Shown here in pieces: positions 1,286 through 52,184 of a DNA stretch of 64,000 bases (its first letter is position 1; every line of letters starts with the position of its first letter). The DNA is from Escherichia coli (GTDB taxonomy: Bacteria; Pseudomonadota; Gammaproteobacteria; Enterobacterales; Enterobacteriaceae). Location: NCBI GenBank assembly GCA_902500055.1, contig GCA_902500055.1_4131.1; one strand, written 5' to 3'. The position numbers were made by a program, and so were the translations under genes. The notes under the pieces were generated by a model. The model made no database searches. It was given only the letters and a program-made list of their open reading frames with translations, and was not told where the DNA came from.

Positions 1286-1309
1286 GGAGAGCATTTGCTC
1301 TCCTTTTTT
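1286..1309 (+). terminator. Rho-independent terminator (GGAGAGC-loop-GCTCTCC plus T-run)
   Basis: 7-bp GC-rich stem, 4-nt loop, followed by TTTTTT; A-run upstream makes it potentially bidirectional. Confidence 0.6.
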
Positions 1310-1314
1310 ATATG

Positions 1315-2040
1315 TTATCTATATGAACGAAATCCTTCAGGCAAACCAGGTAGCTTGTCTAATCCTTCGTTCGCACTCACCAGCTTTGTGTCGTAATCAT
1401 CACTGAAATCATCCGTAGCAAGTTTACGCCCCAAGTCTCTCACAAAGTTATCGATAATTTCTTCTTCATCATTTCCTGGATGACCTTCAGCTTTCAACTT
1501 TTTCCAGAAATATTCATTATAGTCAAATACAAACTCAACTTCATTAGTTTCAGGATCAAGAACAACATCCAAATCAATCCAAGGTTCTTTACGAAGTGTG
1601 TATATTTCCTTAGAATATTCACTTTGTGTGATTTCATCGTAACGATATGCAAATTCAATAGCCTTAAGCCTTTTTTCATCACCTTCTGGCATTAACTCAA
1701 TGATTTCCATATCATATTCTTTTTCTGTAATAACTCCAATACTTAGTTTTGCATCAAGAACTTTAACATCATACTGTTCACGAGTAATTTTAGAATATTT
1801 TAGTTCAACATCAAGTACAGCAATTAGATATTCCAAATCTCCAATTACGCTATATTTCTTTTTAATATCCAATTGGGCCACTTCAACTTCATATGGAGTT
1901 AGATATGTCAATTCAGCAACTTTCATATCAGCTTCATAATCATCATTGTAGTAATATGCTTTAGCTATCTCTTTTGCCTTTCCAGAAAGTCCCCAGTGAG
2001 CAGGGACCATCCAAAATGGAATAAATTTCTTTTTAGCCAT
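1315..2040 (-). CDS. Hypothetical protein (acidic, about 241 aa)
   Basis: Long minus-strand ORF immediately downstream of the GroES-like gene. Start taken at the MAKKK Met (2040); the track's 2052 start overlaps the GroES stop. No motif recognised. Confidence 0.55.
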   Translation of the reverse strand: MAKKKFIPFWMVPAHWGLSGKAKEIAKAYYYNDDYEADMKVAELTYLTPYEVEVAQLDIKKKYSVIGDLEYLIAVLDVELKYSKITREQYDVKVLDAKLSIGVITEKEYDMEIIELMPEGDEKRLKAIEFAYRYDEITQSEYSKEIYTLRKEPWIDLDVVLDPETNEVEFVFDYNEYFWKKLKAEGHPGNDEEEIIDNFVRDLGRKLATDDFSDDYDTKLVSANEGLDKLPGLPEGFRSYR

Positions 2041-2332
2041 TTTTCTTACCAAAAATCTCTTCGATTTTCATTACATAATATGTATCTTCGCCGCCACCAA
2101 GATCTTCAGTCAGTGGTGTGTTCAAAGATGAACGACCAAACACAACCATATCACCTTCTTTAATATTATGTTCTGCAAGTTGTCCGTTCGGAAGAATTTT
2201 ACCTGGACCAACGGAAATTACCATCCCAATACATGGTGGTTCAACATTACCTAGAATAATACCACCAGTACTTTTATTCTGTGCTTCAATTTGTCGAACA
2301 AGAACGTAATCATTAATCATTTTAATTTTCAT
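2033..2332 (-). CDS. groES: Co-chaperonin GroES (Cpn10) homolog
   Basis: MKIKMINDYVLVRQIEAQNKSTGGIIL...VGPGKILPNGQL...IKEGDMVVF aligns motif-for-motif with E. coli GroES (HDRVIVKR..KSAGGIVL, VGNGRILENGEV, VKVGDIVIF). GGAGGT RBS upstream of the ATG at 2332. Confidence 0.85.
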   Translation of the reverse strand: MKIKMINDYVLVRQIEAQNKSTGGIILGNVEPPCIGMVISVGPGKILPNGQLAEHNIKEGDMVVFGRSSLNTPLTEDLGGGEDTYYVMKIEEIFGKKNG

Positions 2333-2333
2333 A

Positions 2334-2540
2334 TTAGTAACCTCCAGTATTTGCAAACCATTTTCCACGGAAATAAAGATTAGCACCCTTATCACCTGGA
2401 GTGAACACTTCCAACTTCATAGTTTTTTCACCATTACATTTAGGACAATCATGAGGTTCATCACGATTTGCAATTTTAACAATTTTTTCCATGCTATGTT
2501 TGCATTCTTCTTTTTCACAACGATATGTATATAATGGCAT
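2334..2540 (-). CDS. FmdB-family zinc-ribbon protein
   Basis: 68 aa, MPLYTYRCEKEEC...CPKC: N-terminal Y.Y.C..C plus distal CPxC, the FmdB-type putative regulatory zinc-ribbon pattern. Confidence 0.5.
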   Translation of the reverse strand: MPLYTYRCEKEECKHSMEKIVKIANRDEPHDCPKCNGEKTMKLEVFTPGDKGANLYFRGKWFANTGGY

Positions 2541-2604
2541 TTTGTATTCCTTTACTTTTTAAATCAAACTAATTTGGGGAACATAGTGTTCCCCGTTATT
2601 TATA

Positions 2605-3336
2605 TTAGCAGCCTGTTACGTAAAATTTGTATACTGCAATTCCAGTATCTAGTGTTACATTTAGCATACCAGTTTTAGTAATACCAAGTGATACTGATTC
2701 GGCATTAGATACGCGAGATAATGCTTGAAGTACGCGATCAATATTATAACCAAAACCAAGACCTAATTCACCTTCAGTTTTAGAAAAAGCTAGAGAACCA
2801 ACGTGGTTACTTTTGTTTTTCTCACCAACGTGAAAGTATAGGGTGTCGCCTTCAGTATACGGAGTTACAAGAGAACTAAAAGATTTAAATACACCAGAAA
2901 AACTCTTTAGTTCCTGAACTTTTGCTGCACTAGGAATAACCTGTACGTCATATGGTTGTTCATGAAAACGTGGTTGAACTGGAATAAGTTTTTCAGCTTG
3001 TACCATAAATGTAGTGCTTGCATCTTCAGATTTAAATGCCAGACTTTTAACTGAACCATCTTTAACATTTGATGTGATTGTGGTTCCTTCGGTACTGTAT
3101 GTTTTTAGAGACATTAGACCCTGAAGAAGACCTAGATTACCTAAGCCAAAACGACCCTGAACTTCAGGAACATCTTCTTTAGTATATGCTCGCATTACAA
3201 GAGTTCGGTCATCTGTGTACGCTTCTAGATATACACGTTGTCCTTCACCACGGTCTTCACTGCTTACTGCAATACAAGAGAAGTCAATACCACTGGTTGT
3301 GTTTACGAGGTCACGTAGTACGTTGCGTAGATCCAT
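2605..3336 (-). CDS. Possible DNA polymerase sliding clamp (gp45-like); otherwise hypothetical
   Basis: 243 aa, close to gp45 size. N-terminus (LRDLVNTTSGI) and an internal GRFGLGNLGLLQGLMSL block resemble T4 gp45 (LLKNFATINSGI; YDLNGFLGILSLV) as recalled from memory. Sits in the replication block near the polymerase. Confidence 0.35.
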   Translation of the reverse strand: MDLRNVLRDLVNTTSGIDFSCIAVSSEDRGEGQRVYLEAYTDDRTLVMRAYTKEDVPEVQGRFGLGNLGLLQGLMSLKTYSTEGTTITSNVKDGSVKSLAFKSEDASTTFMVQAEKLIPVQPRFHEQPYDVQVIPSAAKVQELKSFSGVFKSFSSLVTPYTEGDTLYFHVGEKNKSNHVGSLAFSKTEGELGLGFGYNIDRVLQALSRVSNAESVSLGITKTGMLNVTLDTGIAVYKFYVTGC

Positions 3337-7891: not shown

Positions 7892-9502
7892 TTATTGTTG
7901 ACGTACTGTTTCCCAGTTACCATTTATTTGCATTTGAACATAGCGATAACTAATTCGTTCTAAGTGAGTGCCTGAACTACCATTAACAGAAATCCATACG
8001 CCATCCATAAATGCACCTTCTGGTGTATATGTCCATGAAGAATCAGGTATTTTACGTGTTTCAATACGTGCACTCAAACGAATACTTTGTACGTTATTAG
8101 TACTAATTTGCAAAGTAACGTTGCCACTAGCATCAGCAGCAGTACCGTTAATTGAACGAACAATATTTTTACCACCAACAGTAGCTGAGTTGTTAGAAAC
8201 AGTTAATGATGGAGCAGCTAAAGTACCAGAAGAGTTTACAGTAACTTCTGCTCCACCGGAACGCAATCTCAATGTATTATTTGAAGAGTTATGATACACT
8301 GCCGCACGCTCACCACCGCTTGCGTTACGGAAATATAGAACTAATGATGTATCATTTGACTTAATTGACGCACTGTTTGCAATAGTCAATGAACCAGTCA
8401 TTGTATCACCAGTTTTTAGTACATAACGAGTGTTTGCAACTTTTTCACTCAATGCAACGTTAGATTCAGCAATGTTATATAGATATGCAACGTTAAAGTG
8501 TTCCACATCAATGTTACTAATACCATGATAGTGTGGTTGGTTTCCACCAAGTGTGTTAGTGTTTCCACTAAATGAGTGAATGTGGTCTGGTGCTTCGTTA
8601 ATGTTATTGATTACAGTTGGTATACCGTTATCATTACTTGAAGTTATCGCATTTAGACCACTACGGTCCATACCTTTTAGTGCTTGACTATGACCATGAC
8701 GACCAGCAGCCCCTGTGGTCCCACTAAAACTAAATGAGTGTGATGGTAATTGGGCAACACTTAATACTGTGCCGCTAATATTACCGCTACTACCAATAAC
8801 ACTATCAGTTTTAGTTACACCAGATGTAGATATACCTTTTAAGTACGCTTTTTGGTTAAGGTTTGGTACTTGTTTAGTAATTGTACCATTTTCCCCCTCC
8901 CATTGCCACCACATACCATCAGCAAAACACCAACCGTCAGACGTTTTCCACGGAGCACCTTGTGAACCGTTTCTCCCACTTTGTCCATTCGATTGTCCTG
9001 ACATTTGTTCACGTATACTAGCAACAGATTGACCAGAAGTCAATGAATATTGTGTAATAGCACCAGGTTTAAGTGAAGTGTAAAGACCAGTTGGACCAGA
9101 ACCACCACTAGAAGCAGTAGGGAATACAATGTTTAAGGTTGTTCCACTAATACTTGCACTAGGAACAGTACTACTACTGTATGTTACACTTTCTACTTTT
9201 AAATTTAATTTTCGGTTTACTTCATCTAATGAAATTCTAATTGGTTCCAAAATAGTATCAGTATCATATACTGCAACCCAACTTGTACCGTTATGATACT
9301 TCAAAACTAATTCGCTTCGATCAAAAACCATTGCACCTTGTTCACCAGTAGGTAAAGTTTGTACTGGTATAATAACTGATGACGAATTAAAACGAATAGG
9401 TCTTGGGTTAGTTGGTGTACCACCAAGCACTATTAGTTCTAAAGATCCATTAGCACCAGTACTGGTCATTGTATCCAATGGGTTATTAAAACTTATGCTC
9501 AT
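7892..9502 (-). CDS. Tail fibre protein with His-x-His motifs (gp12/gp37-like receptor-binding fibre)
   Basis: 536 aa, Ser/Thr/Gly/Asn-rich fibrous composition. Contains GRHGHS, PDHIHSF and PHYHG (HxH motifs typical of T4-type fibre tips). Followed by a Tfa-like chaperone gene. Confidence 0.75.
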   Translation of the reverse strand: MSISFNNPLDTMTSTGANGSLELIVLGGTPTNPRPIRFNSSSVIIPVQTLPTGEQGAMVFDRSELVLKYHNGTSWVAVYDTDTILEPIRISLDEVNRKLNLKVESVTYSSSTVPSASISGTTLNIVFPTASSGGSGPTGLYTSLKPGAITQYSLTSGQSVASIREQMSGQSNGQSGRNGSQGAPWKTSDGWCFADGMWWQWEGENGTITKQVPNLNQKAYLKGISTSGVTKTDSVIGSSGNISGTVLSVAQLPSHSFSFSGTTGAAGRHGHSQALKGMDRSGLNAITSSNDNGIPTVINNINEAPDHIHSFSGNTNTLGGNQPHYHGISNIDVEHFNVAYLYNIAESNVALSEKVANTRYVLKTGDTMTGSLTIANSASIKSNDTSLVLYFRNASGGERAAVYHNSSNNTLRLRSGGAEVTVNSSGTLAAPSLTVSNNSATVGGKNIVRSINGTAADASGNVTLQISTNNVQSIRLSARIETRKIPDSSWTYTPEGAFMDGVWISVNGSSGTHLERISYRYVQMQINGNWETVRQQ

Positions 9503-9542: not shown

Positions 9543-9869
9543 CTATAGCAAGTCGTTATCCATATCATCCCACACAGAATCAATGATGTTTGCTGCTATC
9601 TTTTTAGACATTTTAAACCACTCCGTGTTTGGTTGTCTAGTTGCATTCATTTGTTTAAGCCTTTTATGTATCTCTTTTTCAGCTAAACGTGCGTCTTCAA
9701 AGTGAACTTCATGATAAACTTCAAAATCACGAAACGGGGTAGCTGTCTGATACGTTCTCAAACGCTCTGTCATTTCAGATTTAGAAGTGAAACCAATCTT
9801 AACATAGTCAGGCCATGCAGAGTTTATTATAACATAACATATCTGTGACATAGATTCAATCTCCATCAT
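9543..9869 (-). CDS. Stand-alone T5orf172 / GIY-YIG-like domain protein (homing-endonuclease-related)
   Basis: 108 aa; ICYVIINSAWPDYVKIGFTSK...ERLRTYQT matches the T5orf172-type pattern (hydrophobic strand, KIG.T, R..RL). Confidence 0.55.
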   Translation of the reverse strand: MMEIESMSQICYVIINSAWPDYVKIGFTSKSEMTERLRTYQTATPFRDFEVYHEVHFEDARLAEKEIHKRLKQMNATRQPNTEWFKMSKKIAANIIDSVWDDMDNDLL

Positions 9870-9890
9870 TAATATGGAGATATTTATCTA

Positions 9891-10250
9891 TCAATTAATA
9901 GTGAATTTTAAACCAATATCAATTAAACGTTGAAAAGGATTATGTGGCTGAAATTCCGAGGGTTCTTGTGCAATGTTTAGCACAGGAGCATCAGAATGCA
10001 GCAGCGACATACGTTCTCTATAATGATCGATGTATTCTTCATACAACATATCTTCAGTATGTGTATTAAGTATATCTTCTATGAAAGAATCTAAACTATA
10101 ATCTAATCTATCATCATTATAATACAATGTTTCAGTGGCTTCATCGTATCCAACTAACGTACCATAAGGAACATTTATTTCTATATTTGAGTACTGGCTC
10201 TTTAAGTACTCTTCTCTTTTAAATTTGTATACAGTTAACATCCGTGTCAA
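9891..10250 (-). CDS. Hypothetical protein (119 aa)
   Basis: ORF only; acidic, no motif recognised. Confidence 0.5.
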   Translation of the reverse strand: MTRMLTVYKFKREEYLKSQYSNIEINVPYGTLVGYDEATETLYYNDDRLDYSLDSFIEDILNTHTEDMLYEEYIDHYRERMSLLHSDAPVLNIAQEPSEFQPHNPFQRLIDIGLKFTIN

Positions 10251-10264
10251 CTCCTTTAGATTGT

Positions 10265-11419
10265 TTACTTAAAGGTATTTACAATTTCCAGTACAGATTT
10301 TAGATACTTTTCATCAAACGTTTCAGTAAATCCTGACGGCAACTCTTCAGTACTTACTACTCCACTTTCAATGTACTGCTTGATAAACTTTTCCAGTAAG
10401 AGGGGTTTATTACCATCTTCGAAGAAACGTTCTACTAGTACTTCATGGACGAATTCAGAATCACGACTCTGTTCGTTCACTCTACGTTTCATATCACCAG
10501 TGATTCCATATTTGTAAACGGTTTTATCTTTATTAGTTAGTTTCTGTACATAAAAATATCCAGGCTTGGAAGTCTGATAACCATACTTACCGCATTTTGG
10601 ACAACCACGACCTGTCAAATGTGCTTTAGGTTGCTGATGAAAAATATTTTTACAATTGTTGCATTTTATCTCGACCATTTTTTCACTATGCTCATACATA
10701 ACAGATGAGTAATCATAATTATTGTTATGAACTTTTACAGCTTCTGCAATAAATTGCTCGGTTGTTCTCCCACCTTTACCTGAACATATACCACATCCTG
10801 ACTTCCCAAGTATCAATGTTTTTGGATCAACTTCCCAATCATGATTTCCTTCATTGCAATGCACTGTGACTTTTGTTGTTCTGTTAATATAGTTGGTTTT
10901 TTGGAAACTAAATTTATCACCATAATTACGTTTAACAATTTTTATAAATTCATTATTCGTATGCACTACATTAATATTACAAACGTTACATCCAGCACCA
11001 GTTAATAACTTATTTGGTGTTATGTGAAAATAACCATTATGTTTAGTGCAGAATATTGTAACTGGAGTTTTTGCATTAACATAAACCAATTTATCAAATT
11101 TAAATTTTTCAGTCCCGAATTTCTTTTCAACTTTTAAAATGAAATCATCATTATTGGAACGCTGGGACATGTTACTATAACAGTTAGAGCAAGTACATGA
11201 GATATGACGAATTGCAGACTTTGTATTTTCAATACCACATTTGTTACATTTCAAGGTAGTTTTGCTAGATTTAAAAATCATCGAATTAAAATCAAACTCA
11301 CCATACATTCCATATTTTTCATTCATTTTCTTTTTGAAATTTTCAATTAACATTTTCAATTTACTCAACTTGGTTTCGATTTGATAATTATATATAATTA
11401 AAAATATTCTGTCAAGCAT
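10265..11419 (-). CDS. Homing-endonuclease-like protein: four zinc-ribbon repeats plus C-terminal T5orf172/GIY-YIG-like domain
   Basis: Repeated units ending in paired Cys (CNKC, GCNVC, GCGIC, GCPKC). C-terminus GYFYVQKL...YKYGITGDMKRRVNEQ. Start ambiguous: 11419 chosen because the track start at 11560 would overlap the capsid gene; no RBS seen. Confidence 0.55.
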   Translation of the reverse strand: MLDRIFLIIYNYQIETKLSKLKMLIENFKKKMNEKYGMYGEFDFNSMIFKSSKTTLKCNKCGIENTKSAIRHISCTCSNCYSNMSQRSNNDDFILKVEKKFGTEKFKFDKLVYVNAKTPVTIFCTKHNGYFHITPNKLLTGAGCNVCNINVVHTNNEFIKIVKRNYGDKFSFQKTNYINRTTKVTVHCNEGNHDWEVDPKTLILGKSGCGICSGKGGRTTEQFIAEAVKVHNNNYDYSSVMYEHSEKMVEIKCNNCKNIFHQQPKAHLTGRGCPKCGKYGYQTSKPGYFYVQKLTNKDKTVYKYGITGDMKRRVNEQSRDSEFVHEVLVERFFEDGNKPLLLEKFIKQYIESGVVSTEELPSGFTETFDEKYLKSVLEIVNTFK

Positions 11420-11430
11420 TTTTTTAACAC

Positions 11431-11457
11431 AAAAGAAAAGGGACTCCGAAGAGTCCC
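11431..11457 (-). terminator. Rho-independent terminator of the major capsid gene
   Basis: GGGACTC-CGAA-GAGTCCC hairpin followed on the minus strand by TTTTCTTTT, 45 nt downstream of the capsid stop. Confidence 0.7.
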
Positions 11458-11501
11458 TATTGTTTTTATATTCTTGATTAAATCTTTTAAATCGTTTATA
11501 A

Positions 11502-12677
11502 TTACATGAAAGTAACGTTTTTGATAGCGATTTTGCTGTAGTAGTCAGCAGCGTTACCAAGAGATGAAGTACTGTCGGTTAGCTGAACGTAGCCATAGCG
11601 TGTTAAAAATGTGGTCACGAGTTCACCAGTGTTAGGGTCCATTACAGTACCAGAAGCCATTAGTGGGATGTATGGGCAATAGAATACACCAGCATCAGTT
11701 TCCGCATTACCTTTATAACCAATTAGAATATCTTCTGCATCACTAGCATAGGTATCAACGAAAATACGCATAGTGCTGTTTAGAGTACCTACAAACTTAA
11801 CGTTAGTTGGTGCTTCAAAAGTACCTTCAGTGGTACGTGCAAAGCTAGAAGTAGTAGCAGATTGTAGAATGGTTAGTGCAGTTGGGGAAACAACAGCCCA
11901 GTTTGCAGCACCACGCTTAGTACGACGAGCAACTTCGTTTGCTTGACGGTTAATTAGAGTAGCTAGAGCAGCGTGCTCATCACCAACGAAGGTTGCAACA
12001 CCAGTAACTTTAGATTGGTCATAAGTTACAGCAGCAGCACCAGGTAGTGCACGTAGACGGCTTAGTAGCTCTTGGTCGATTTCTACAGTAACTTCTTGAG
12101 CGATTGCAGCCATTAGTTCTGCTTCAACGTCAACACCATGTTGGGATTGAGCATCTTGTGCAGATTCAACAGTCCAACGTGCAGATAGACGACGAGATTT
12201 CGCTTCAACAGTTTCACGTAGAATACGGATGTTAACGCGACGACCCATAGTACCTTCTAGTTGGCTAGTAGGAGCAGCTTGTGGGTTGCTATTATCCGCA
12301 TTTAGATCACCAGAGTAGGATTTAGCGATTTTGTATGGAGAAAGCATTTCTTCACCAGCGATTACACCAGGTGCGTTATCAGCATATTGTACACGTAGGG
12401 TGTGGATCTGACCAACTGGACCAGTCATAGGTTGAACACCGATGATTTCGTTAGCAATAACGGTTGGCATTACACGACGCATAATTGGTAGAATCACTTT
12501 GTTTAGAGTAGCGATGTTACCAGCGGTAGTTGCACCAGAAGTTGCGGATTCAGTTAGCATAACTTTACGATGGTTATCAAGAACAGTTTCCATTACAGAC
12601 TTACGAGTACCCTGTAGACCTTCAACTAGTTTCTCTTTTACTGCTACCCATTTGGATTCATTTAGTAGTTGTGACAT
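11502..12677 (-). CDS. gp23: Major capsid protein (T4 gp23-like)
   Basis: NEIIGVQPMTGPVGQIHTLR, IEAKSRRLSARWTVESAQDAQSQHGVDVEAEL and GYKGNAETDAGVFYCPYIPL match conserved gp23 blocks. AAGGAG RBS; late promoter upstream; terminator downstream. Confidence 0.9.
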   Translation of the reverse strand: MSQLLNESKWVAVKEKLVEGLQGTRKSVMETVLDNHRKVMLTESATSGATTAGNIATLNKVILPIMRRVMPTVIANEIIGVQPMTGPVGQIHTLRVQYADNAPGVIAGEEMLSPYKIAKSYSGDLNADNSNPQAAPTSQLEGTMGRRVNIRILRETVEAKSRRLSARWTVESAQDAQSQHGVDVEAELMAAIAQEVTVEIDQELLSRLRALPGAAAVTYDQSKVTGVATFVGDEHAALATLINRQANEVARRTKRGAANWAVVSPTALTILQSATTSSFARTTEGTFEAPTNVKFVGTLNSTMRIFVDTYASDAEDILIGYKGNAETDAGVFYCPYIPLMASGTVMDPNTGELVTTFLTRYGYVQLTDSTSSLGNAADYYSKIAIKNVTFM

Positions 12678-14594: not shown

Positions 14595-15419
14595 TTATTT
14601 TAGTTTAGGTTGTGCTTTGCTTAGTGGTGATTTAGAATTAGATGCAGTAGTTTTTGGTGCTTTAACATCTTTCATTTCACCGCGAGCATTTTTACCAAGA
14701 TCTAGACTATCTTTTGGTAGAACAGATTTATCATCTAGGTCTAGTAGTGGTGCTTGGTCAGTTTTCTTAGCGAATTTAACTGGCTCTGCTCCTGCTACTG
14801 GAGATTTAGCTTCTGGTGCTACTGGAGATTTGGAATGAGTGCCAGCTTTTTCTTTCTTATCAACTGGAGCAACTTTTTCTAGTTTGAAGGATTCACCGAA
14901 TTTTTCATCACCGAATTCAACATCAGCAAATTCGTCGTCACCGTCAACGCCAACTTCTTCTTCGCTATCTTCTACTTCTTCTTCAGAATCTAGATCAACT
15001 TCACCGTCACCGATTTCATCAAACATTTGTTGTAGGCCACGGAAAGCATCTTGGATTGATTCCCATTGGTCTTCGGAAGGAACATCAGCATCAGCTTTCA
15101 CTTCAACGTCAACATCGTCTTCACCGTCACCATCTTCATCAGCAGAGAATTCAACTTCTTCTTCTGCACTTTCATCTTCTTCACCAAGGGTGTATTCGAT
15201 TTCAGCATTTAGACCTTCGTCTGGTTGTACATCAAAATCTTCGTCAAGCTTTTCTTCATCTTTGACTTCACAATCTTCATCTTCCATGCTTTCTTCTAGT
15301 TGTTTGTTAATTTCTTGAGCTTGCTCAACGAAATACTTACGCATTTTTTTATCAGCAATATCTTGTTCGCCATTTGCAAACGCCGCAATTGCTTCTTGTA
15401 GTAGTTTTAAATTCGCCAT
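14595..15419 (-). CDS. Highly acidic prohead core / scaffold-associated protein
   Basis: Long D/E tracts in the middle, basic Lys/Pro-rich C-terminus; lies between portal and protease genes. Start set at the Met with a GGAGGA RBS (15419). Confidence 0.6.
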   Translation of the reverse strand: MANLKLLQEAIAAFANGEQDIADKKMRKYFVEQAQEINKQLEESMEDEDCEVKDEEKLDEDFDVQPDEGLNAEIEYTLGEEDESAEEEVEFSADEDGDGEDDVDVEVKADADVPSEDQWESIQDAFRGLQQMFDEIGDGEVDLDSEEEVEDSEEEVGVDGDDEFADVEFGDEKFGESFKLEKVAPVDKKEKAGTHSKSPVAPEAKSPVAGAEPVKFAKKTDQAPLLDLDDKSVLPKDSLDLGKNARGEMKDVKAPKTTASNSKSPLSKAQPKLK

Positions 15420-15520
15420 TATATCCTCCATAGATATATTACATTCGTATAAAGTATGATATTATTTAGTACTGAATAAAATCGCCTTTTTTAAAAGCTT
15501 TAAAAAGTGCGATTTTTGAT

Positions 15521-19906: not shown

Positions 19907-20743
19907 ATGGCTATGAATCCACTTGCTAAGTACACTAAAATTGAAGAGATCAGTACTAAGTTAGTTACAAACGGCGTTATTCCTTATAAAGAAGGAGTTC
20001 TAGGTCCAAAAGGTGTCAAATGTGGAGTTTGTGCACGTAGTGCACGTGATGAAATGACACTTAATACCCCCGATATGTTACTAAACGGAGATGCAGTATC
20101 CCGTGTTATTGAAAACTGTGTTCCTAATGTAATTGACGCTGATGAGTTGTATGTAAATGACGTTGAAATGCTTCTTATTGCTATTAAAGTTGCTTCTAAA
20201 GAAGAAACATATGATATTAACGTTGTATGTCCTGAATGTGAAAAAGAAGGTCGATTTGAACGTAATCTATCATATCTTCTTGAAACTGCACAAGCATTTG
20301 AAGAAATCCCATCAATTGATTTAGATAATGGACTCCGTTTAGAATTTAGACCACTGACATGGAAAGAATATTCATCGTTTGCTGAACGCATGTTCAGTGA
20401 GCAGCAGAAGACTAAGTTTCTTGAAACTGCTGATATTGATAAAGATGAAAAAGTAAAAATATTTTCTGAAGTATTTGAAAACATGGCTCAACTTAACTTC
20501 GATATGATTGGTGGAGTTATTGCAAAAATTATAACACCAGATGGTGATGAAGTAGTTGAAAAAGAATTTATTAATGAATGGCTTGGACAACAATCGAAGG
20601 GAGTACTTAAACTAATTCGTGAAAAAATGGATGAAGTACTTGAAATTGGTGTATCTCATAGTATGGAAGTAGAATGTGATGGATGTAATCATCAATGGGA
20701 AATTGATGGACTAAAATATGATCCTAGTCATTTTTTCGAGTAA
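19907..20743 (+). CDS. Zinc-ribbon (multi-CxxC) protein of unknown function
   Basis: 278 aa with three CxxC pairs (CGVC, CPEC, CDGC); late promoter upstream; stop overlaps the next start (TAATG). Confidence 0.6.
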   Translation: MAMNPLAKYTKIEEISTKLVTNGVIPYKEGVLGPKGVKCGVCARSARDEMTLNTPDMLLNGDAVSRVIENCVPNVIDADELYVNDVEMLLIAIKVASKEETYDINVVCPECEKEGRFERNLSYLLETAQAFEEIPSIDLDNGLRLEFRPLTWKEYSSFAERMFSEQQKTKFLETADIDKDEKVKIFSEVFENMAQLNFDMIGGVIAKIITPDGDEVVEKEFINEWLGQQSKGVLKLIREKMDEVLEIGVSHSMEVECDGCNHQWEIDGLKYDPSHFFE

Positions 20744-20952
20744 TGCTTCTCCAGTCATCTCCTGAAGAAATACAAGAAGTACTGAAGGAGATAGAACTGA
20801 ATAAGTCAGAAATCAAAAATGCACTAATGGAATGTTCTGTATATATGGATAACATTGACTATGGAACACTCCTTAATATGCCATTAATAGATAGAGACTT
20901 ATTAGTTAAGTCTTTTAATAAAAAAATTAAAAAACAAAACGAGAAGCACTAA
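20743..20952 (+). CDS. Hypothetical protein (69 aa), translationally coupled
   Basis: ATG overlaps the upstream stop; followed by a terminator hairpin. Confidence 0.45.
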   Translation: MLLQSSPEEIQEVLKEIELNKSEIKNALMECSVYMDNIDYGTLLNMPLIDRDLLVKSFNKKIKKQNEKH

Positions 20953-20963
20953 TTTTCATATAG

Positions 20964-20989
20964 CCAGCACATTGTTGCTGGTTTTTTTT
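20964..20989 (+). terminator. Rho-independent terminator
   Basis: CCAGCA-cattgt-TGCTGG hairpin followed by TTTTTTTT. Confidence 0.6.
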
Positions 20990-21159
20990 GGTTTTAAACT
21001 ACAGAATTATTTGAATTGAATTATGAAAGGATTAATTTTAATATTATTGGATTCATCTAACTCATTTCATTCGTTAGCTGAAGAATATTCGTTACTACGT
21101 AACTCATATTCATTTAATTAAATTAATTATAAAGAACTTTAAAAGATTTAATACTTGAC

Positions 21160-21660
21160 GGGATTTGTTGAGGACATTTTCATCCCCCCGCAGGGGAATG
21201 AAGACAATAAAAAAGAGACAATGAAGTCTCTATTTCTTGACGCTGATGGTTTCAGCATTTATTGTATTGCGAATTTCTTAAAAATATATTAAGAACGAAA
21301 GCGGGTTGCTCTGTTTCTCTCTATCGCAGTCATGTGCAACGGTCGTCAGTCTTAATCATCCTGACACTCACCTGAAAGTCTATACAATCAAACTTCAGGC
21401 TGTTTATTAAAATCACTTAATAAACTCCCTTAGCAAATCTGGTAAGGTGCGATCCTTATATGTCTATCTAGGAACTCTCTGTATGCTTATCGGAGTTCTT
21501 TATTGAGCCGCATTGCCGTGAGGGGTTCAAACTATGCCCACATCTAACGGGTTTCTTTTGCTCATCGCACTGTTGAACTGCTCATCTGCCATCTACATTT
21601 TCGATAGGATCAGGTTCTAATTTATATGCATTTCTGCATTCAACAGGATTGTCATTACTA
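21160..21660. other. Candidate structured RNA or foreign-DNA remnant inside an ORF-free interval (20990-21790)
   Basis: No ORF of 60 codons or more on either strand across about 800 bp in an otherwise gene-dense genome. An 80-nt sample (21301-21380) counted by hand is about half G+C. Several imperfect hairpins. Strand and identity undetermined. Confidence 0.3.
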
Positions 21661-21735
21661 CAACAAACATTATAGCACTATTTTTAAAATCTTCCCACTA
21701 ATATCATAAAAAAATAAAAAAGTACTTAGTACATT

Positions 21736-21771
21736 TTTGAAGTATAAAAAAACCAAGTAACAAAACATTAC
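21736..21771 (-). terminator. Hairpin terminator downstream of the 21790-22341 gene
   Basis: CCAAGTAA-loop-TTACTTGG 8-bp stem followed on the minus strand by a T-run. Confidence 0.45.
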
Positions 21772-21789
21772 TTGGTTCATAAAAACTAT

Positions 21790-22341
21790 TCAATAATTTA
21801 TATTTTTTGATATGAAGTCTTTTATAATTTTAATGTGGTCATCTGAATACTTTATTCTAAGTAAAGTAATATTATTATCATAACAATACTTATTCTTAAT
21901 TTCATCATTTCGTTGTTGTTCAGCTAAACCTTCTTCTCCACCGAAGTATTCTATTGGTTTGAAGTGTTGGATACCATCATATTCTATTAGTAGATTAAGT
22001 TCAGGAATATAAAAATCAAATGGTAAATGATTGATGTTTTTACAACTATCAAATTTCTTTTCCATTTCAAACATTATATCACACGTTTTTAAAAAATTCT
22101 GAATTTCAATAACAGGTTTTGATTTTAGTTCTTGGTCTGAACAAACTGGACACCCTTGTTTTGCAGAAATGTGTTTATTAGGAACTACTGTGAAGTCACC
22201 GTGAATGTTACACGTAACAGTTATTGGATGGTGTGCATTGACATATATTGTTTTATTGTATGTGTAAATACTACCATGAATATTCATTGATTTATCTATG
22301 AATTGTTGTTGTGTAATTTTAGCTATTCTTGTGTACCTCAC
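21790..22341 (-). CDS. Homing-endonuclease-like protein: zinc-ribbon module fused to a PD-(D/E)xK (DUF559-like) nuclease domain
   Basis: N-terminus shares the zinc-ribbon repeat of the 10265-11419 protein (ITVTCNIHGDF...KQGCPVC). C-terminus FDFYIPELNLLIEYDGIQHF...LLRI resembles the DUF559/Vsr-like fold. Confidence 0.55.
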   Translation of the reverse strand: MRYTRIAKITQQQFIDKSMNIHGSIYTYNKTIYVNAHHPITVTCNIHGDFTVVPNKHISAKQGCPVCSDQELKSKPVIEIQNFLKTCDIMFEMEKKFDSCKNINHLPFDFYIPELNLLIEYDGIQHFKPIEYFGGEEGLAEQQRNDEIKNKYCYDNNITLLRIKYSDDHIKIIKDFISKNINY

Positions 22342-22386
22342 AAAACTTTTTAATATACATTATTTACAGAAACAGGACAAAACGCT

Positions 22387-22878
22387 ATGAAAAAGAGATT
22401 GAAAAATCCCAATGAAGCAGCAGCTTACAGAAAAGAACTACTAAAAAAACAAAATGGTATTGACCCCATTATAGGAATAAAAATAACTAAACCAGTACTT
22501 GACCACTATCATGGTGGAAATCAACATTGTAGACAGGTTCTTCAAAATGAGGTGAATGGATGGGAAGGAAGGGTCGCAAATTCATTTAAACGCTGTCTGG
22601 GCCATTTAACTGATAAACCTCTTCATGAAGTACTAAGAAATCTGGCAGATTATCTTGAAAAGAACAATAACATTCCACCTGAAGAGCAAGTCATACATCA
22701 CACAGCACTAACTGTGGATGTTAATAAGTTTAAAAGGCTTCCAGCAACACAGCAAAACGCGATTCTGGAAGGGTTAGGAGTTGTCCCTGGTAGTAACACT
22801 ACTGCTCGTGTAAAGCAAGCTAGAAAGCTGATTAAGGACGGTAAATTAAATATGGTTGATATAAAAAAAGGGAGCTAA
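22387..22878 (+). CDS. Possible endonuclease VII-like protein; otherwise hypothetical
   Basis: 163 aa; LDHYHGGNQHCR loosely resembles the DHDH...C block of T4 endonuclease VII as recalled. Weak. Confidence 0.3.
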   Translation: MKKRLKNPNEAAAYRKELLKKQNGIDPIIGIKITKPVLDHYHGGNQHCRQVLQNEVNGWEGRVANSFKRCLGHLTDKPLHEVLRNLADYLEKNNNIPPEEQVIHHTALTVDVNKFKRLPATQQNAILEGLGVVPGSNTTARVKQARKLIKDGKLNMVDIKKGS

Positions 22879-33961: not shown

Positions 33962-33968
33962 TTATAAA

Positions 33969-33996
33969 AGCACTCTTCGGAGTGCTTTTCTTTTTG
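33969..33996 (+). terminator. Rho-independent terminator after gp25
   Basis: AGCACTC-TTCG-GAGTGCT hairpin followed by TTTTCTTTTT. Confidence 0.65.
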
Positions 33997-34030
33997 AATA
34001 AATATTTCTATATAAATCATGGAGTGATGT

Positions 34031-34738
34031 ATGAAAAGATATTATGGTTTCATTTATCAATGGGAAGATTGTTCCAATGGTATAAAATATATAGGTTCTC
34101 ATTATGGAACAACTGATGACAAGTACGTGTCTTCTAATATTATAGTTAATCGCATTTATAAGAGTAGACCCCTTGATTTATCAAGAGTCGTTTTGGAATA
34201 TATTATTGTTAATGATAAGAATTTTTTATTGGAAAGAGAACAAAAATACTTAGATTTAATACTTCCGTCTGAATTGTATACTAGTACCAATAGAAAAAAC
34301 AAAACCGTAAAATATTACAACATGAAAAAGAATGCATGTGGTGGTAACGGTGGTATTGGAAGTAATGGTATATTGAAAAATAAAATAAAATATTTTAATA
34401 AAAATACTTTAGAACAGAAATTCTTTCATTATAATGATGACATATCGGATGATTGGATTAAAGGTGTACCCCCATCTAAGGTTAGTTGTTCAGGTAGTAT
34501 TTGGTATCTAAATATACATACTGGAGAAAATAAAAGATTTAGACATAACCCTGGTATAGATTGGATTGAAGGAAAACGCAATACTTCAACAACACCAAAA
34601 AAGGTAAGCACACCATATGGGATTTTCGAAAGTGCATCTGAATGTAGTAGACAAACTGGAATAAAACAAGGAACTGTATCATTTAGGTGTCGTTCCAAAT
34701 CAACTAATATGACAAATTGGTTTTATATAGAGGAATAA
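34031..34738 (+). CDS. GIY-YIG homing endonuclease (Seg/I-TevI-like) inserted between gp25 and gp6-like genes
   Basis: N-terminal YYGFIYQWEDCSNGIKYIGSH (GIY...YIG motif); C-terminal SECSRQTGIKQGTVSFRCRSKS resembles a NUMOD/helix-turn-helix DNA-binding tail. Confidence 0.8.
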   Translation: MKRYYGFIYQWEDCSNGIKYIGSHYGTTDDKYVSSNIIVNRIYKSRPLDLSRVVLEYIIVNDKNFLLEREQKYLDLILPSELYTSTNRKNKTVKYYNMKKNACGGNGGIGSNGILKNKIKYFNKNTLEQKFFHYNDDISDDWIKGVPPSKVSCSGSIWYLNIHTGENKRFRHNPGIDWIEGKRNTSTTPKKVSTPYGIFESASECSRQTGIKQGTVSFRCRSKSTNMTNWFYIEE

Positions 34739-34741
34739 ATT

Positions 34742-37700
34742 ATGTCACAACAAAAAAGACAGTCTAATTTATATAGTGGTGAGGATTGGACCCAGGTATA
34801 TGAAAGTTTTTATAAGATCAATCTCACTGCATTTGATTTTGACACTATTCGTCAAAGTATGATTGATTATCTACGTGCAACTTACCCAGATTCATTTAAC
34901 GACTGGATCGAAAACGATCAGTTTATTTTTATTTTAGATACGATTTCTATGCTAGGACAGAACTTGGCATTTCGTATGGATTTGAACACGCGTGAAAACT
35001 TTTTAGATACTGCAACTCGTCGTGCGTCAGTACTAAAACTAGCTAAAATGATTTCTTACTCACCACGCCGCTCATATCCAGGTCGTGCAGTTGCTAAATT
35101 AACCGAAATTAAAACAAACCAAGATGTTCGTAATAGTTTTAATGAATCATTAAAAGATAAAATCATTCGTTGGAATGACCCGATGGATGCTAACTGGTAT
35201 GAAAACTTTATTCTAGTAATGAACAGTTCATTTGTCAGTACTAACCAATTTGGTAATCCAGTCAAGCGTATTGATGTTAATGGTGTCTCCCGCCAACTAT
35301 ATCGAATGAACACCATCCCAATGACAGCACCCAGTATTCCATTTGTTGCAACTGTCAATGGTGAATCTATGACATTTGAAGTAGTGAATCCTGATATTAC
35401 GTCTGTTGGTGTTGAAGAACGACATCCAGAACCACAAGAGCAAAAATATATTGTTTATCAAAATGATGGTAATGGATTTAGCTCACCAAATACTGGGTTT
35501 TTTGTATATTTCGTACAAGGTACATTGACATATCAAGATTATCAATATGCTATCCGTGAAGAGAACCGTATACAAGATATTAACGTTGATAATATCAACG
35601 AAACTGATGTATGGGTTCAAGAAATAAATGAAGATGGTATTGTTCGTACCAAATGGACAAAAGTTCCATCAATGGAAAGTATTGCATATAACACTGTTAA
35701 TCGTCAATTAAAAACAATTTTTGCTGTTACTACTCGTGATAAAGACCAAATAACAATTAAGTACCCAGACTCAAGAAGTGGTGTTGTTCCCCGTGGGACG
35801 TTCCGTGTATGGTATCGTGTTAGTAATGGTAAAACATATAACATTAAAACTTCTGAAATTCAAAATAAAAGCGTAAAATATACATATCGTACAAAAACAC
35901 AGTCAAGTTATGAATCTAGTACATTGGATATACGTTTTTCATTACAATATGAGTCCGACCGTGCACAAAGTGCAGAGACTATTGAGCAGATTAAAGCACG
36001 TGCACCACAAATGTACTATACACAAAACCGTTTTGTCAATGGTGAAGATTATAATATTGCACCACTTAGTTTAGGCAATACTGTACTTAAATCTAAAGCT
36101 ATTAATAGAATTTATAGTGGACAATCAAGATTTATTGATATTAATGATCCTACTGGTAAGTATCAAAATACCGATGTTTTTAGTGATGATGGTGCATTAT
36201 ATCAAGAAAACACACAATTTAATAGATCATTATTGCTACCAACTACAAAAACAAATGCTAGTATTGTTATTGACAATATTCAACCATTGATTGGTGAAAA
36301 TGCGGTAATACAACGTTACCAAGCGTTTCCATCAAATACAATTGGTATTGAAATACAACAAGCATGGACTCCGGTATACAATTCAAATTATACAACTAAC
36401 ACATATGGTAGAATTTTGGGTTCATCTGGTACAGTTTATGGTTCATATCAGGTTGGTACTCTAATTAAATTTTCTAATTCTGGAACTACTATATGGGCTA
36501 GTGTAGTTAGTGTATTGGATAATGGATTTTATGTACTGAGTACATCGGTTCCAAGTGGAATGCAAGCCATAGAGTACATTTTACCATATAGAACTAGATT
36601 TAACTCGGTTGAAGTTCAAGCAATTTCTGCTATGCTAGATAAAAAAACTGATTTTGTTATTGTACATGACAAAGAAACGACATCATGGGTTCCTATTGAA
36701 GTAAGTACCAATGATGATACTATTGTATATAATGGAAATGAAGTTTTAATTATAATTAATGTAAAATATACAGCAGAAACTTGGGAATTTGATGCTAACG
36801 GTATTGAATATATTTTTGTGGGTGGAGAAAAAGTAAGATTTTACTTTGTATCATCTAAAAAAATTACTGATATTAGTACTGGTACAGTTCAAAGTGATAA
36901 GATTGAAATTTTATCATCTAACACTACTAGTAGTAGTAATTCAGGATTGACAAGTAATATAGATTTTCAAATTTATGACACAATTCAACAAGAGAATGGC
37001 TATCTAGATGGTTCTCGTGTTATTGTTACATCTAGGAAAGTAGATAGTAATGGTATACCATTGGAACCAAACCAATTTAAAGAAATTGTTCCTACTTGGA
37101 CTGGAACCGATGCATTAAAATATGGTGGTATTTTGGTATTTCAGGAAAATAGTGATTTCACTATATCAGTACTGTCGTTACCAAATGATACCTTCACACT
37201 TCTTGATTCATCGTGGTCTTATACAATGGAACAAGCCTTGGCAGAGCCGAATGCATATAAAAGAACTGAATTTGTTAGAAATAACGCAATTCGTTCAACC
37301 ACATTGAGTGGATTATATAGTAAAGGTTCTGGATTTTTAGTTGGTTTTAACTATGATGGTAAATATTATTTTATTGAACAAACAGTTGGTAATAACAATG
37401 ATCGTTTAGGACAGCTAATTAGTAATTTAACTTATTCCGATGATACTGGCACTGTTAGTCCTGAATTGGCTTTTTATCGTGCAATTAATAACATGGGAAC
37501 TAATGCTGACGAGAATCAGAAGCTAGATTATTATGGATACAAAGATGTTACTTCACAGTACACTGTTAAAACTAATGCACGTACTAGTATAGACTTCCAT
37601 TGGAAACACTATGCACCTGACGACAATCGCATTGATCCTAGTAGAACAAACTTAATTGATATGTATGTATTAACCAATTCATATAAAACTGAAGTTGACG

Positions 37701-50690: not shown

Positions 50691-52184
50691 ATGACATATA
50701 GAATGTGGAAAAAAGGTAGAACCAATGATTACAAGTTCATTGATTCTGCCATTGCTGAACAATACAACATTGGTGGAGTTGACATGTGGCTTTATGCATA
50801 TGTCGGTCCAAAACAAGTTGCTGACAACACTGACTTATCCTATGGAGGTGATTATACATCTTCAGGATCAGTTGTGTCAAGTATTGGCGATTTAATTTTT
50901 GGTGACACACCAAACAGAAACTACAACCTTGAAGCTATCACACTTAGTTGTGTCTATCAAGTTCAAGAAGCAACTCCAGACTTGAAAATCCCAGGATTGT
51001 TCTTTAATTTCAACACTATGGACATCACAATCCATTATAATACAATGATGCAGCGTTTAGGTAGAAAAATCATGCCAGGGGATGTGATAGAACTACCAAA
51101 TTTACGTGATTTTGATGTATTGGGTAAAGATACAGGTCTAAACCGCTTCTATGTCGTCCAAGATGCATTTCGTACATCTGAGGGATACTCGGTTACGTGG
51201 CAACATCACATTTATAAACTTAGAGTTAAACCGCTAACCGACTCACCTGAGTACTCCGATTTACTCGGTAACAATAATTATCCTGATAATCCAGATGACC
51301 CTAATAATGGTAATGGAAATACCGATGATGGTTCGTCGGAAAACAGTAACTATGGCAATGAAATGGATATCATGAACCGTATCATCATGCAAGCTGATGA
51401 TGAAGTACCCTATATTCATTATACAAATGAACATTTGTATGATGATCGACCTGATACAGTAGATTTATCAAAATATATGCTTAACGGTTATGATTTTCCA
51501 GAAGAACCTGCCGATGGAATGTATTTTTTGAAAAAAACATACCCAGTACTCAAAGAGTTTGTTAATGATACATGGATTTCTGTGGAAGTCAAGCGTGGAA
51601 CCATCTTTCCCAGAAAACCAATGGATGGTGACTTCTTCTTTAAAGAAAATGACGCAGATGTGACAGGTTATACGTTGTATCAATATGATAAAAGTGCTAA
51701 AAAATGGTTAAATTGTGATGTAGAATATACTACCAGTGATGTTCCACCAGAAGATGTGGAAGATTTTTGTATTTTTTATAAAGAACCACACATTTATCAG
51801 TATAATGATGACAAGTGGGGGGAACCAAAGGTAACTTATGTCAATGAACCATTCACGTCCAATTGTGTATATGGTAATATTGATTCGCAACAAGATTATC
51901 GTCCTAAAATTCCACCAGCACGAGGTACAGTCCCTGAAGGAAATATGTTCCCAACTGATGCAGTAGATGGTGACTATTTCTATCGCACCGATTATACTCC
52001 AGTTACGTTATGGGAATTCAATGCAACTAAGAATTCATGGGTTATTTTTGATTATGGTGGAAGAAAACCGTGGGAAGGTGCAGACTTAGCACTTACACAG
52101 TTTGTAAATAGTGATAACAAAGTTCCATTACATGACGCAGTTAAACCTAATACTGTTTATCGCATACATAAGGACACAGAATGA
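50691..52184 (+). CDS. Hypothetical virion protein (possible neck protein), about 497 aa
   Basis: Directly upstream of the gp15-like gene, where T4 has neck genes 13/14. Start set at the ATG with a GGAGA RBS (the track start is a TTG). Contains a Gly/Asn/Asp-rich linker. Confidence 0.45.
   Translation: MTYRMWKKGRTNDYKFIDSAIAEQYNIGGVDMWLYAYVGPKQVADNTDLSYGGDYTSSGSVVSSIGDLIFGDTPNRNYNLEAITLSCVYQVQEATPDLKIPGLFFNFNTMDITIHYNTMMQRLGRKIMPGDVIELPNLRDFDVLGKDTGLNRFYVVQDAFRTSEGYSVTWQHHIYKLRVKPLTDSPEYSDLLGNNNYPDNPDDPNNGNGNTDDGSSENSNYGNEMDIMNRIIMQADDEVPYIHYTNEHLYDDRPDTVDLSKYMLNGYDFPEEPADGMYFLKKTYPVLKEFVNDTWISVEVKRGTIFPRKPMDGDFFFKENDADVTGYTLYQYDKSAKKWLNCDVEYTTSDVPPEDVEDFCIFYKEPHIYQYNDDKWGEPKVTYVNEPFTSNCVYGNIDSQQDYRPKIPPARGTVPEGNMFPTDAVDGDYFYRTDYTPVTLWEFNATKNSWVIFDYGGRKPWEGADLALTQFVNSDNKVPLHDAVKPNTVYRIHKDTE

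Follow-up and report, generated by a model that had tools for sequence, protein, structure and literature searches.

Marker exclusion is established for the Seg proteins, and the I-Bth0305I family belongs with those homing endonucleases that carry CapR-like repeats and an EDxHD/Vsr-like nuclease. T5orf172-family homing-endonuclease genes (HEGs) with repeated CapR/DUF723 zinc fingers, their shuffling and the in-frame deletion of their repeats have been described by Barth, Dunham and Seed (2023; PMC10448857). The HEGs gp165 and gp174 of the Vibrio phage ICP1, and their relatives, are of this kind, with CapR/DUF723/DUF4379 zinc-finger repeats, the gp174* allele having undergone a 228 bp in-frame deletion through inter-unit recombination, and CapR, a repressor of capsid expression, is derived from HEG DNA-binding domains (PMC10448857). 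CapR-like repeats are also found on the EDxHD/Vsr-like HEGs of phage group II introns, in which three to five CapR/DUF4379/DUF723-like units of ~60 aa precede a Vsr-like nuclease of ~100 aa (PMC12350094). The protein architecture, the shuffling of modules and the loss of repeats treated below have already been described in these other phages (PMC10448857; PMC12350094), and the three cassettes reported here add members to a known kind of HEG; the kind of system is not new.

Three cassettes and a fixed gene in a jumbo coliphage

The DNA analysed, a stretch of 64 kb referred to as the window, belongs to a jumbo coliphage of the Asteriusvirus type (121Q/PBECO4 group) and matched 63 phage records. 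The original prediction placed at least four free-standing genes resembling homing-endonuclease genes in it, and the four open reading frames that it listed were all found on the strands and at the coordinates given for them, with the locations at the capsid/fibre boundary and between gp25 and gp6 both borne out. A six-frame search of the whole window found no zinc-ribbon, T5orf172, Vsr-like or Seg-like ORFs beyond these four, and NCBIfam has a model for none of their proteins. The HEG claim itself stood for the genes at 10265, 21790 and 34031 and fell for that at 9543-9869. Comparison with related genomes, the check that had been proposed, revealed cassette-free relatives at the insertion sites: each of the three genes is sporadically present or absent at one locus among close relatives, their cassettes are the sole large indels between the window and PBECO4 (blastn breakpoints over the 64 kb), all three sites are empty in PBECO4, and other relatives either have nothing there or have a different nuclease gene. 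Judging from such population patterns only, the three are very probably free-standing homing-endonuclease cassettes.

Cassette A (1182 bp; 10242..11423, minus strand; delimited by blastn breakpoints and boundary alignments) is placed between the terminator of the major capsid gene and the RBS of the gene at 9891-10250, where PBECO4 has 40 bp; the whole capsid-site gap measures 1260 bp in the window and 118 bp, empty, in PBECO4, and the endonuclease gene is absent from this site in fEgEco12 too. The cassette comprises a promoter, a weak RBS and an endonuclease ORF, whose product matches phrog_681 (E 3e-73). This gene had been predicted to begin inside the capsid terminator, at ATG 11419, which would give 384 aa. 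Its start is most likely ATG 11353, just after the weak RBS, giving a CDS of 362 aa (10265..11353, minus strand): the alleles of 121Q, phAPEC6 and other phages begin at the equivalent Met, as does a 362-aa database protein that is 99% identical to the product. The intrinsic capsid terminator (11431..11458, minus strand; 11458-11439, followed by a T-run to 11431) is conserved with and without the HEG and forms the upstream edge of the site, ATG 11419 lying 12 nt past its T-run and upstream of the promoter -35 box. A translation start in the terminator was rejected, as the terminator position, the promoter and the boundary alignments speak against it. The promoter, a sigma-70 sequence of the form TTGACA-N17-TATAAT (11387..11415, minus strand) inside the cassette and upstream of ATG 11353, matches the consensus at 12/12 positions, a score reached twice in the window against 0.18 expected occurrences. 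In six T5orf172-type cassettes, the one in the window and those of five relatives, 11-12/12 positions agree with the consensus and the spacers differ; for the divergent allele in SHEFM2K the figure is 9/12, and for empty sites 8/12. The further claim that the gene has no RBS and tightly limited expression is contradicted by this near-consensus promoter, which the compared cassettes share and empty sites lack; early transcription of cassette A by the host RNA polymerase is probable, given that it carries its own consensus promoter.

Cassette B (657 bp; 21729..22385, minus strand) replaces 58 bp of PBECO4 and ends one base before the start codon of endonuclease VII. It holds a shortened endonuclease CDS of 183 aa (21790..22341, minus strand), with no recognisable RBS ahead of its GTG start, and, just 3' of this ORF, a terminator-like hairpin with a 13-bp stem and a T-run (21750..21778, minus strand). 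Only two of the records listed carry this HEG, EC22.5-2 in the full three-unit form and ECO103 4-12-1 as an equivalent BLAST match. A tRNA or known RNA in the ORF-free stretch beside the cassette was considered and rejected, ARAGORN finding nothing there and the only Rfam match lying far below threshold. Cassette C (707 bp; 34018..34724, plus strand), in place of which PBECO4 has 27 bp, lies between the gp25-like terminator and the gp6-like gene and carries a probable Seg-like GIY-YIG endonuclease CDS of 235 aa (34031..34738, plus strand) with an I-TevI-type C-terminal helix-turn-helix, a GGAG RBS and a TATAAAT motif lying upstream. The gene is also present in TH47, and 121Q and JP4 have an HNH gene annotated at the same site.

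The fourth gene (9543..9869, minus strand) is, by Pfam, PHROG and synteny, a stand-alone T5orf172 nuclease-domain gene of the GIY-YIG superfamily. Its product matches Pfam T5orf172 (PF10544) at 50.3 bits (cutoff 20; E 3.7e-13) and phrog_15085 (E 1.5e-58) and has no DNA-binding module, so that its description as T5orf172 alone was accurate; the start is probably ATG 9851, with GGAG 9 nt upstream, and the resulting length of 102 aa is that annotated in 121Q. Its position is shared by orthologues in PBECO4, 121Q, SHEFM2K, the unclassified Salmonella phage SE_PL (78% aa identity) and the Erwinia phage pEa_SNUABM_19 (Eneladusvirus; 69% aa identity), and the gene is syntenic in every Asteriusvirus examined. 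Its supposed status as a sporadic insertion does not survive this identical position in all relatives examined, an outcome that the original prediction had itself named as telling against its case. Being found at one position in at least two genera and an unclassified relative, the gene is fixed rather than sporadic, and it is therefore most likely a retained nuclease, whether domesticated or relic, rather than a currently mobile element.

Zinc-ribbon units and nuclease domains

The 10265 protein joins four zinc-ribbon units of ~62 aa, assigned by domain search to the Pfam DUF4379/DUF723/CapR type, to a T5orf172-type nuclease of GIY-YIG fold, all on the minus strand. Unit 1 (aa 1-61, 11171..11353), delimited by repeat alignment, has the ligand pattern CxxC ... 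CxCxxC, unit 2 (aa 67-128, 10970..11155) CxxH ... CxxC, unit 3 (aa 131-193, 10775..10963) Cx4H ... CxxC with a weak Pfam CapR match, and unit 4 (aa 197-258, 10580..10765) CxxC ... CxxC with the best Pfam DUF4379 match (30 bits, cutoff 24.5); the nuclease domain occupies aa 259-362 (10268..10579). The predicted arrangement of four repeats plus T5orf172 is one on which repeat alignment, Cys positions, the DUF4379 match and the fold agree: paired Cys/His ligands recur every ~62 aa, homologues also give CapR matches in Pfam, and the AF2 model repeats a helix, beta-hairpin and short helix four times over. These units most likely read DNA. The C-terminus alone reaches 16.6 bits for Pfam T5orf172 (PF10544; cutoff 20), and three to five of its aligned homologues match T5orf172/MUG113. 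Its link to the small T5orf172 protein rests on PHROG, hhalign (E 0.003) and fold evidence, phmmer having found nothing between the two. The domain has the beta-beta-alpha-beta-alpha core of the GIY-YIG fold, is complete, retains the conserved GIY-YIG-type residues and is the most conserved portion of the protein; across capsid-site alleles, which carry three or four units or, in SHEFM2K, a more divergent array, it is almost unchanged.

The 21790 protein (phrog_559, E 1e-50; also phrog_9084) consists of a chimeric zinc-ribbon unit (22132-22317, minus strand) and a Vsr-like PD-(D/E)xK domain (21793-22131, minus strand). The unit matches the 10265 repeats in BLASTP at E 2e-9 to 5e-8, on which its homology rests, an HMM built from the same five repeats being circular and not used; Pfam DUF723 gives 19.5 bits (cutoff 20.9), and homologues of the zinc-ribbon proteins are precomputed as PF05265/PF14311. 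The top Foldseek matches of the AF2 model (pLDDT 94.9) are E. coli Vsr structures, 1vsr and 1cw0, at probability 1.0/0.99 and an E of only 0.013, and I-Bth0305I is absent among the matches listed. The Vsr-type fold comes with its conserved acidic and His residues, E120, H126 and D146 never varying among 46 homologues and D109 and K149 being conserved in at least 90% of them, and all five residues are retained here. Pfam DUF2726, DUF559 and DUF5889 are all sub-threshold, and neither phmmer with the protein nor the profile of 46 sequences yielded a relevant PDB match. The BLASTP matches and the structural match to Vsr uphold the prediction of one zinc ribbon on a PD-(D/E)xK nuclease, and with it that of one shared unit on different catalytic domains, a GIY-YIG-fold nuclease at 10265 and a Vsr-fold nuclease at 21790. 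The single repeat is, however, no architecture of its own, as the gene arose by deletion from the three-unit form usual among its relatives: it differs from the 323-aa EC22.5-2 allele by an exact 420-bp in-frame deletion, with the crossover mapped to AAAACAAGG, and among the 120 listed of its 815 homologues nearly all are ~300 aa. With two of three units lost, the enzyme has probably become weaker or changed its specificity.

The 34031 protein matches phrog_314 (E 1.4e-12) and Pfam I-TevI_DNA-bd, the latter at 27.0 bits and so exactly at the cutoff of 27, and its profile matches PDB 1I3J (E 4e-4). Its own GIY-YIG and SegE_GIY-YIG matches in Pfam are sub-threshold (E 0.17 and 0.067), and the predicted GIY-YIG assignment, a probable one, draws on members of its family. 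This family, nine sequences in a database of 5.8 billion proteins, conserves the residues GFIY...KYIGS...R...E...N, and at E below 1 (best 6e-5) SegE_GIY-YIG is detected in 7/9 members and GIY-YIG in 4/9.

Divergence tracts and explanations for the cassettes

Relative to PBECO4, sharply bounded and mostly synonymous divergence tracts lie beside each cassette, a pattern that homing with co-conversion would be expected to leave; they are mainly on the side of the adjoining conserved gene, the opposite side having a weak tract only. In the capsid gene, the final ~270 nt (11502..11772, minus strand) carry 26 substitutions (27 when the final 360 nt are counted), every one synonymous, a TCA -> AGT serine switch included, against 0-3 differences per 100 bp in the remaining gene, and may represent a co-conversion tract and/or a protected target region. 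In endonuclease VII, 65 of the first 106 codons differ (22387..22704, plus strand), 43 of them synonymously and 22 non-synonymously, and the other 57 codons of the gene are unchanged, suggesting a sharply bounded co-conversion tract. A third candidate tract of this kind covers roughly 95 codons at the start of the gene for the gp6-like baseplate protein (34742..35026, plus strand), where 21 codons differ synonymously and 2 non-synonymously; beyond it the rate is ~1 difference per 100 bp. With bin counts taken by eye from the list, 100-bp bins holding at least 8 mismatches make up 8/24 of those flanking insertions and 15/573 elsewhere (Fisher p 6.5e-7); divergent bins also occur away from the HEGs, for example at 15201 and 41201-43801. 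The capsid-gene patches match divergent-clade sequences (vB_Ec-M-J, fEgEco12), and the identity of the patches in PBECO4-clade HEG carriers to this more divergent clade indicates imported DNA. Since fEgEco12 has the variant capsid 3' sequence and yet an empty site, the patches do not strictly go with the presence of a HEG, and they may simply be native to the divergent clade; SHEFM2K has a different allele at the site and an unmodified capsid 3' end.

In the reading preferred here, the cassettes would have invaded intergenic gaps beside essential, conserved genes, namely between the capsid gene and its downstream neighbour, upstream of endonuclease VII and between gp25 and gp6. In a mixed infection, the nuclease would cut a related phage's endonuclease-free allele within the conserved gene adjoining the gap, and recombinational repair off the endonuclease-carrying genome would copy in the cassette along with flanking sequence a few hundred bases long, in which silent changes could also shield the carrier from self-cleavage. 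The unit arrays recombine, varying the number of units on a near-constant nuclease domain.

It is unlikely that the cassettes are instead relics of past homing or illegitimate recombination whose nucleases have ceased to be active and specific, their present patchiness arising as co-circulating jumbo phages undergo deletions and recombine homologously in the ordinary way. Such decay would suit the 21790 gene, without two of its three DNA-binding units and with a GTG start lacking a recognisable RBS, as well as the variant flank of cassette-free fEgEco12 and the divergent patches found elsewhere in the window. Against it stand the strong enrichment of divergence at the insertion edges and the state of the genes themselves: intact ORFs in all three, conserved nuclease-domain residues, cassette A promoter hexamers conserved while their spacers diverge, and a nuclease domain nearly invariant across cassette A alleles argue for continuing selection.

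Selection could also act through competition, the nucleases being kept to cut co-infecting relatives or satellites, by marker exclusion or as anti-parasite functions like ICP1 Odn, with the small T5orf172 gene domesticated. The position of that gene in at least two genera and an unclassified Salmonella phage, the co-option of T5orf172 proteins in ICP1/PLE conflicts (PMC10448857) and the early-type promoter of cassette A, suited to action on incoming DNA, all fit this, but the three cassettes are sporadic rather than conserved, the small protein lacks a DNA-binding module and the window holds no evidence of satellites, which leaves such a role quite improbable. Least credible, and very improbable, is that the zinc-ribbon proteins are mainly CapR-like DNA-binding regulators and not nucleases. 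For the protein encoded directly downstream of the capsid gene this is a sensible thought, given the CapR precedent (PMC10448857), the weak CapR match of unit 3 and the CapR matches of homologues; its best conserved part, however, is a complete nuclease domain with GIY-YIG-type residues, and viable close relatives do without the gene.

Implications and comparison with known systems

With the homing interpretation, the window offers a clean natural case of HEG cassettes shaping mosaic boundaries within jumbo-coliphage genes essential for structure and recombination, at the 3' end of the capsid gene and the 5' ends of the endonuclease VII and gp6 genes. The post-terminator capsid gap appears as a hotspot at which one nuclease domain is combined with several different allelic arrays of zinc ribbons, and this allele series, together with the candidate target tracts, could be used for studying DNA reading by the units. 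In annotation and in genomics for phage therapy, two start codons are corrected and mobile cassettes are told apart from a fixed nuclease-domain gene. A far more speculative proposal, to which only a slight chance is given, is that each zinc-ribbon unit is a self-contained DNA-reading module that can be moved between proteins, with the target site set by how many units there are and in what order, and that the T5orf172 gene devoid of DNA-binding units could use modules encoded separately. The allelic three- and four-unit arrays, the occurrence of the unit on two nuclease folds and the recombination-made one-unit enzyme would fit it. If true, phages would re-target their nucleases by unit shuffling, in principle comparable to engineered zinc-finger arrays, and the small T5orf172 protein, whose gene adjoins the hotspot, could work with reading modules supplied from elsewhere.

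Like ICP1 gp165 and gp174, the 10265 gene encodes an N-terminal zinc-finger array and a C-terminal T5orf172-type domain, with unit number varying by allele, and like the ICP1 HEGs the genes described here lie at genetic-exchange boundaries beside essential genes. They differ in belonging to an Asteriusvirus jumbo myophage lineage, and cassette A stands directly behind the major-capsid terminator with its own consensus sigma-70 promoter. The in-frame unit deletion recalls that of gp174*, but it removes 420 bp rather than 228 bp and affects the Vsr-type 21790 gene. The usual relatives of this gene have exactly three units and a Vsr-like domain, as in the EDxHD/Vsr HEGs; unlike those intron-borne genes, it is free-standing and has a single unit left after deletion. 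The 34031 protein resembles T4 Seg proteins and I-TevI in its probable N-terminal GIY-YIG domain and I-TevI-type C-terminal helix-turn-helix, and its gene, like those of T4 Seg proteins, is inserted between conserved structural genes with an apparently co-converted flank, whereas its family is very small and its own GIY-YIG score in Pfam lies below the cutoff.

Three insertions and one fixed gene

Between 7300 and 13000 the window is 92-98% identical to Asteriusvirus jumbo coliphages (121Q, PBECO4, phAPEC6, SHEFM2K and others). The genes of the predicted interval, all on the minus strand, begin with the major capsid gene (11502-12677) and the 10265 ORF; a small gene whose function is unknown (9891-10250, phrog_15724) follows, then the small 9543-9869 ORF and the tail fibre gene (7892-9502). 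Elsewhere, the 21790 ORF (21790-22341, minus strand) adjoins endonuclease VII (22387-22878), and the 34031 ORF (34031-34738, plus strand) lies between gp25-like and gp6-like baseplate genes. Whole-window alignment with PBECO4 gave four collinear blocks of 98-99% identity and exactly three large insertions, 10242-11423 (cassette A), 21729-22385 (cassette B) and 34018-34724 (cassette C), holding one gene apiece. The alignment slips register at 61181-62747 (89.5% identity, offset blocks), where a 510-bp unit stands in three tandem copies, 60-86% identical.

The original prediction had counted 9543-9869 among the free-standing homing-endonuclease-like genes; it behaves differently from the other three. 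This gene falls within a block 99.4% identical to PBECO4, and orthologues occupy the corresponding place in SE_PL, an unclassified Salmonella phage (78% amino acid identity), and in the Erwinia Eneladusvirus pEa_SNUABM_19 (69%), with conserved synteny, the shared order being capsid ... phrog_15724-like, T5orf172, tail fibre, fibre assembly, hypothetical protein, DNA polymerase; it is therefore fixed, not sporadic. Its start is probably ATG 9851. Three mobile homing endonuclease gene (HEG) cassettes and one fixed nuclease-domain gene are, with good though not full confidence, the best explanation of the sequence comparisons.

Occupancy of the three sites varies among relatives. The capsid site is empty in PBECO4 (118 bp) and fEgEco12, and holds 365-aa alleles in 121Q, phAPEC6 and vB_Ec-M-J (with four zinc-ribbon units in both alleles whose sequence was read), three-unit alleles in ECO103 4-12-1 and E9.1, and a divergent 332-aa allele in SHEFM2K; the unit arrays are mosaic and the nuclease domain is nearly identical. 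In the distant relative SE_PL, this same gap downstream of the capsid gene contains two additional genes, 1122 and 624 nt long (1289-3068 of its record, L016), which suggests that this hotspot is in use across genera. At the endonuclease VII site, a 21790-type gene was found among matched records only in EC22.5-2, as a three-unit protein of 323 aa, and ECO103 4-12-1. The 34031-type gene occurs elsewhere at the gp25/gp6 site in TH47 only, 121Q and JP4 having an annotated HNH gene instead. That of 121Q (1732-2496 of its record, L008) fills the gap and is annotated 'associated with group I intron'; two unrelated nuclease families thus use one site.

Cassette B is inserted at the edge of a stretch of about 780 bp (20953-21730) which lacks any ORF above 45 aa, even though the phage is otherwise densely coding, and whose PBECO4 counterpart is unannotated. 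There are 0 mismatches per 100 bp to PBECO4 across 20400-21599, and 21147-21634 is 77% conserved in Salmonella phages Munch, 7t3 and SE_PL. The stretch holds no tRNA, and its sole Rfam match scores far under the threshold; it could encode a non-coding RNA or serve as an origin or regulatory region.

Shared repeats and a deletion product

The 9543-9869 protein consists of a T5orf172 domain and nothing more (Pfam, 50.3 bits). The 10265 protein has four repeats of about 62 aa, every one with a C/H pair and a CxxC pair, which Pfam assigns to DUF4379 (precomputed calls for homologues are DUF723 and DUF4379). Three of these are matched by the single repeat of the 21790 protein (BLASTP, E 2e-9 to 5e-8), whose AF2 model (pLDDT 94.9) finds its top fold match in E. 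coli Vsr; in 46 homologues E120, H126 and D146 are invariant and D109 and K149 at least 90% conserved. The prediction that genes with different catalytic domains share a zinc-ribbon module was therefore correct. The 34031 protein combines an N-terminal domain with conserved GFIY...KYIGS...R...E...N, most of its few relatives matching SegE_GIY-YIG or GIY-YIG, with an I-TevI-type DNA-binding region at the C-terminus.

Judged by its sequence, the one-unit 21790 gene is a deletion product: its ORF (552 nt) equals that of EC22.5-2 (972 nt) minus exactly 420 nt, following unit 1 before and unit 3 after a common AAAACAAGG in the stretch encoding KQGCPVCSD. Among the 120 listed of 815 homologues, nearly all are about 290-320 aa long, and the single short exception, on a 354-kb contig, is this truncated protein again. 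The nuclease residues are intact, and cleavage may still occur, though recognition would be altered or weaker.

Divergent flanks

The capsid gene is near-identical to that of PBECO4 outside its last 270 nt, where 26 substitutions are found (27 if the last 360 nt are taken). All are synonymous, and they include a three-base serine switch, TCA to AGT. Other HEG-carrying genomes of the PBECO4 clade share these patches, which are identical to what vB_Ec-M-J and fEgEco12, members of a more divergent clade, carry natively and so indicate imported DNA. The first 106 codons of endonuclease VII, beside cassette B, include 65 that differ from PBECO4 (43 of them synonymous), and the other 57 codons are all unchanged; in gp6, beside cassette C, differences number 23 in the first 95 codons (21 of them synonymous), with the background rate beyond. 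In 100-bp bins counted by eye from the bin list, at least 8 mismatches were present in 8/24 insertion-flanking bins vs 15/573 elsewhere in the whole window (Fisher p 6.5e-7). Double-strand-break repair with co-conversion would be expected to leave such tracts, which are indirect evidence for it. Linkage is, however, not strict, as fEgEco12 has the variant flank without a cassette, SHEFM2K has a cassette but an unchanged flank, and bins of high divergence also occur away from insertions.

One such bin, 15201-15300, shows 28 mismatches to PBECO4 and lies far from all cassettes; the gene around it (14598-15461, minus strand) encodes a virion structural protein. Recombination over a short patch may account for it, or an element since lost may have left a scar. 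Several bins with 8-13 mismatches per 100 bp at 41201-43900, in a virion structural protein gene of about 10 kb, probably reflect host-range-related mosaicism unrelated to HEGs.

Expression signals and described HEGs

The 10265 gene had been predicted to start inside the capsid terminator, at ATG 11419, with tightly limited expression. The terminator (11458-11439, minus strand) and its T-run end at 11431, and this ATG comes after them. Cassette A carries a TTGACA-N17-TATAAT promoter (11415-11387, minus strand), a pattern with 2 occurrences in the window vs 0.18 expected; the only other perfect match is TTGACA-N18-TATAAT at 50851-50880 (minus strand). Six T5orf172-type cassettes (the window and five relatives) score 11-12/12 in the same place with differing spacers, compared with 8/12 at empty sites and 9/12 in the SHEFM2K allele. 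ATG 11353 corresponds to the start codon of the 121Q-type alleles and of a 362-aa database protein with 99% identity. Given these homologue starts and the conserved promoter, the gene most likely starts at 11353 under its own strong early-type predicted promoter, so that limited expression is unsupported, though the RBS is weak. Cassette B has a terminator-like hairpin of its own. In cassette C the RBS is GGAG, accompanied by a TATAAAT motif that we take to resemble a T4-type late promoter. Within 33966-34030, the gp25-like gene ends in a terminator built like the capsid one, with a TTCG loop in a GC stem, and the motif comes next, ahead of the 34031 gene.

The original observation was largely right and its interpretation partly so. 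HEGs have been noted in Rak2-like jumbo phages (PMC5259590), and our literature search found no paper on these particular Asteriusvirus loci. For T5orf172 HEGs, Barth, Dunham and Seed (PMC10448857) reported that 87% have a zinc finger of the type CapR, DUF723 or a related DUF (DUF4397 in the text, DUF723/4379 in the legend of figure 5). They also described arrays of repeated units, shuffled domains, deletions between repeats that keep the reading frame, and a location at boundaries of genetic exchange. An EDxHD/Vsr-like HEG nuclease with three to five CapR/DUF4379/DUF723-like units is also described (PMC12350094). Since these two papers cover the architecture, the loci are a well-documented new instance of a described kind.
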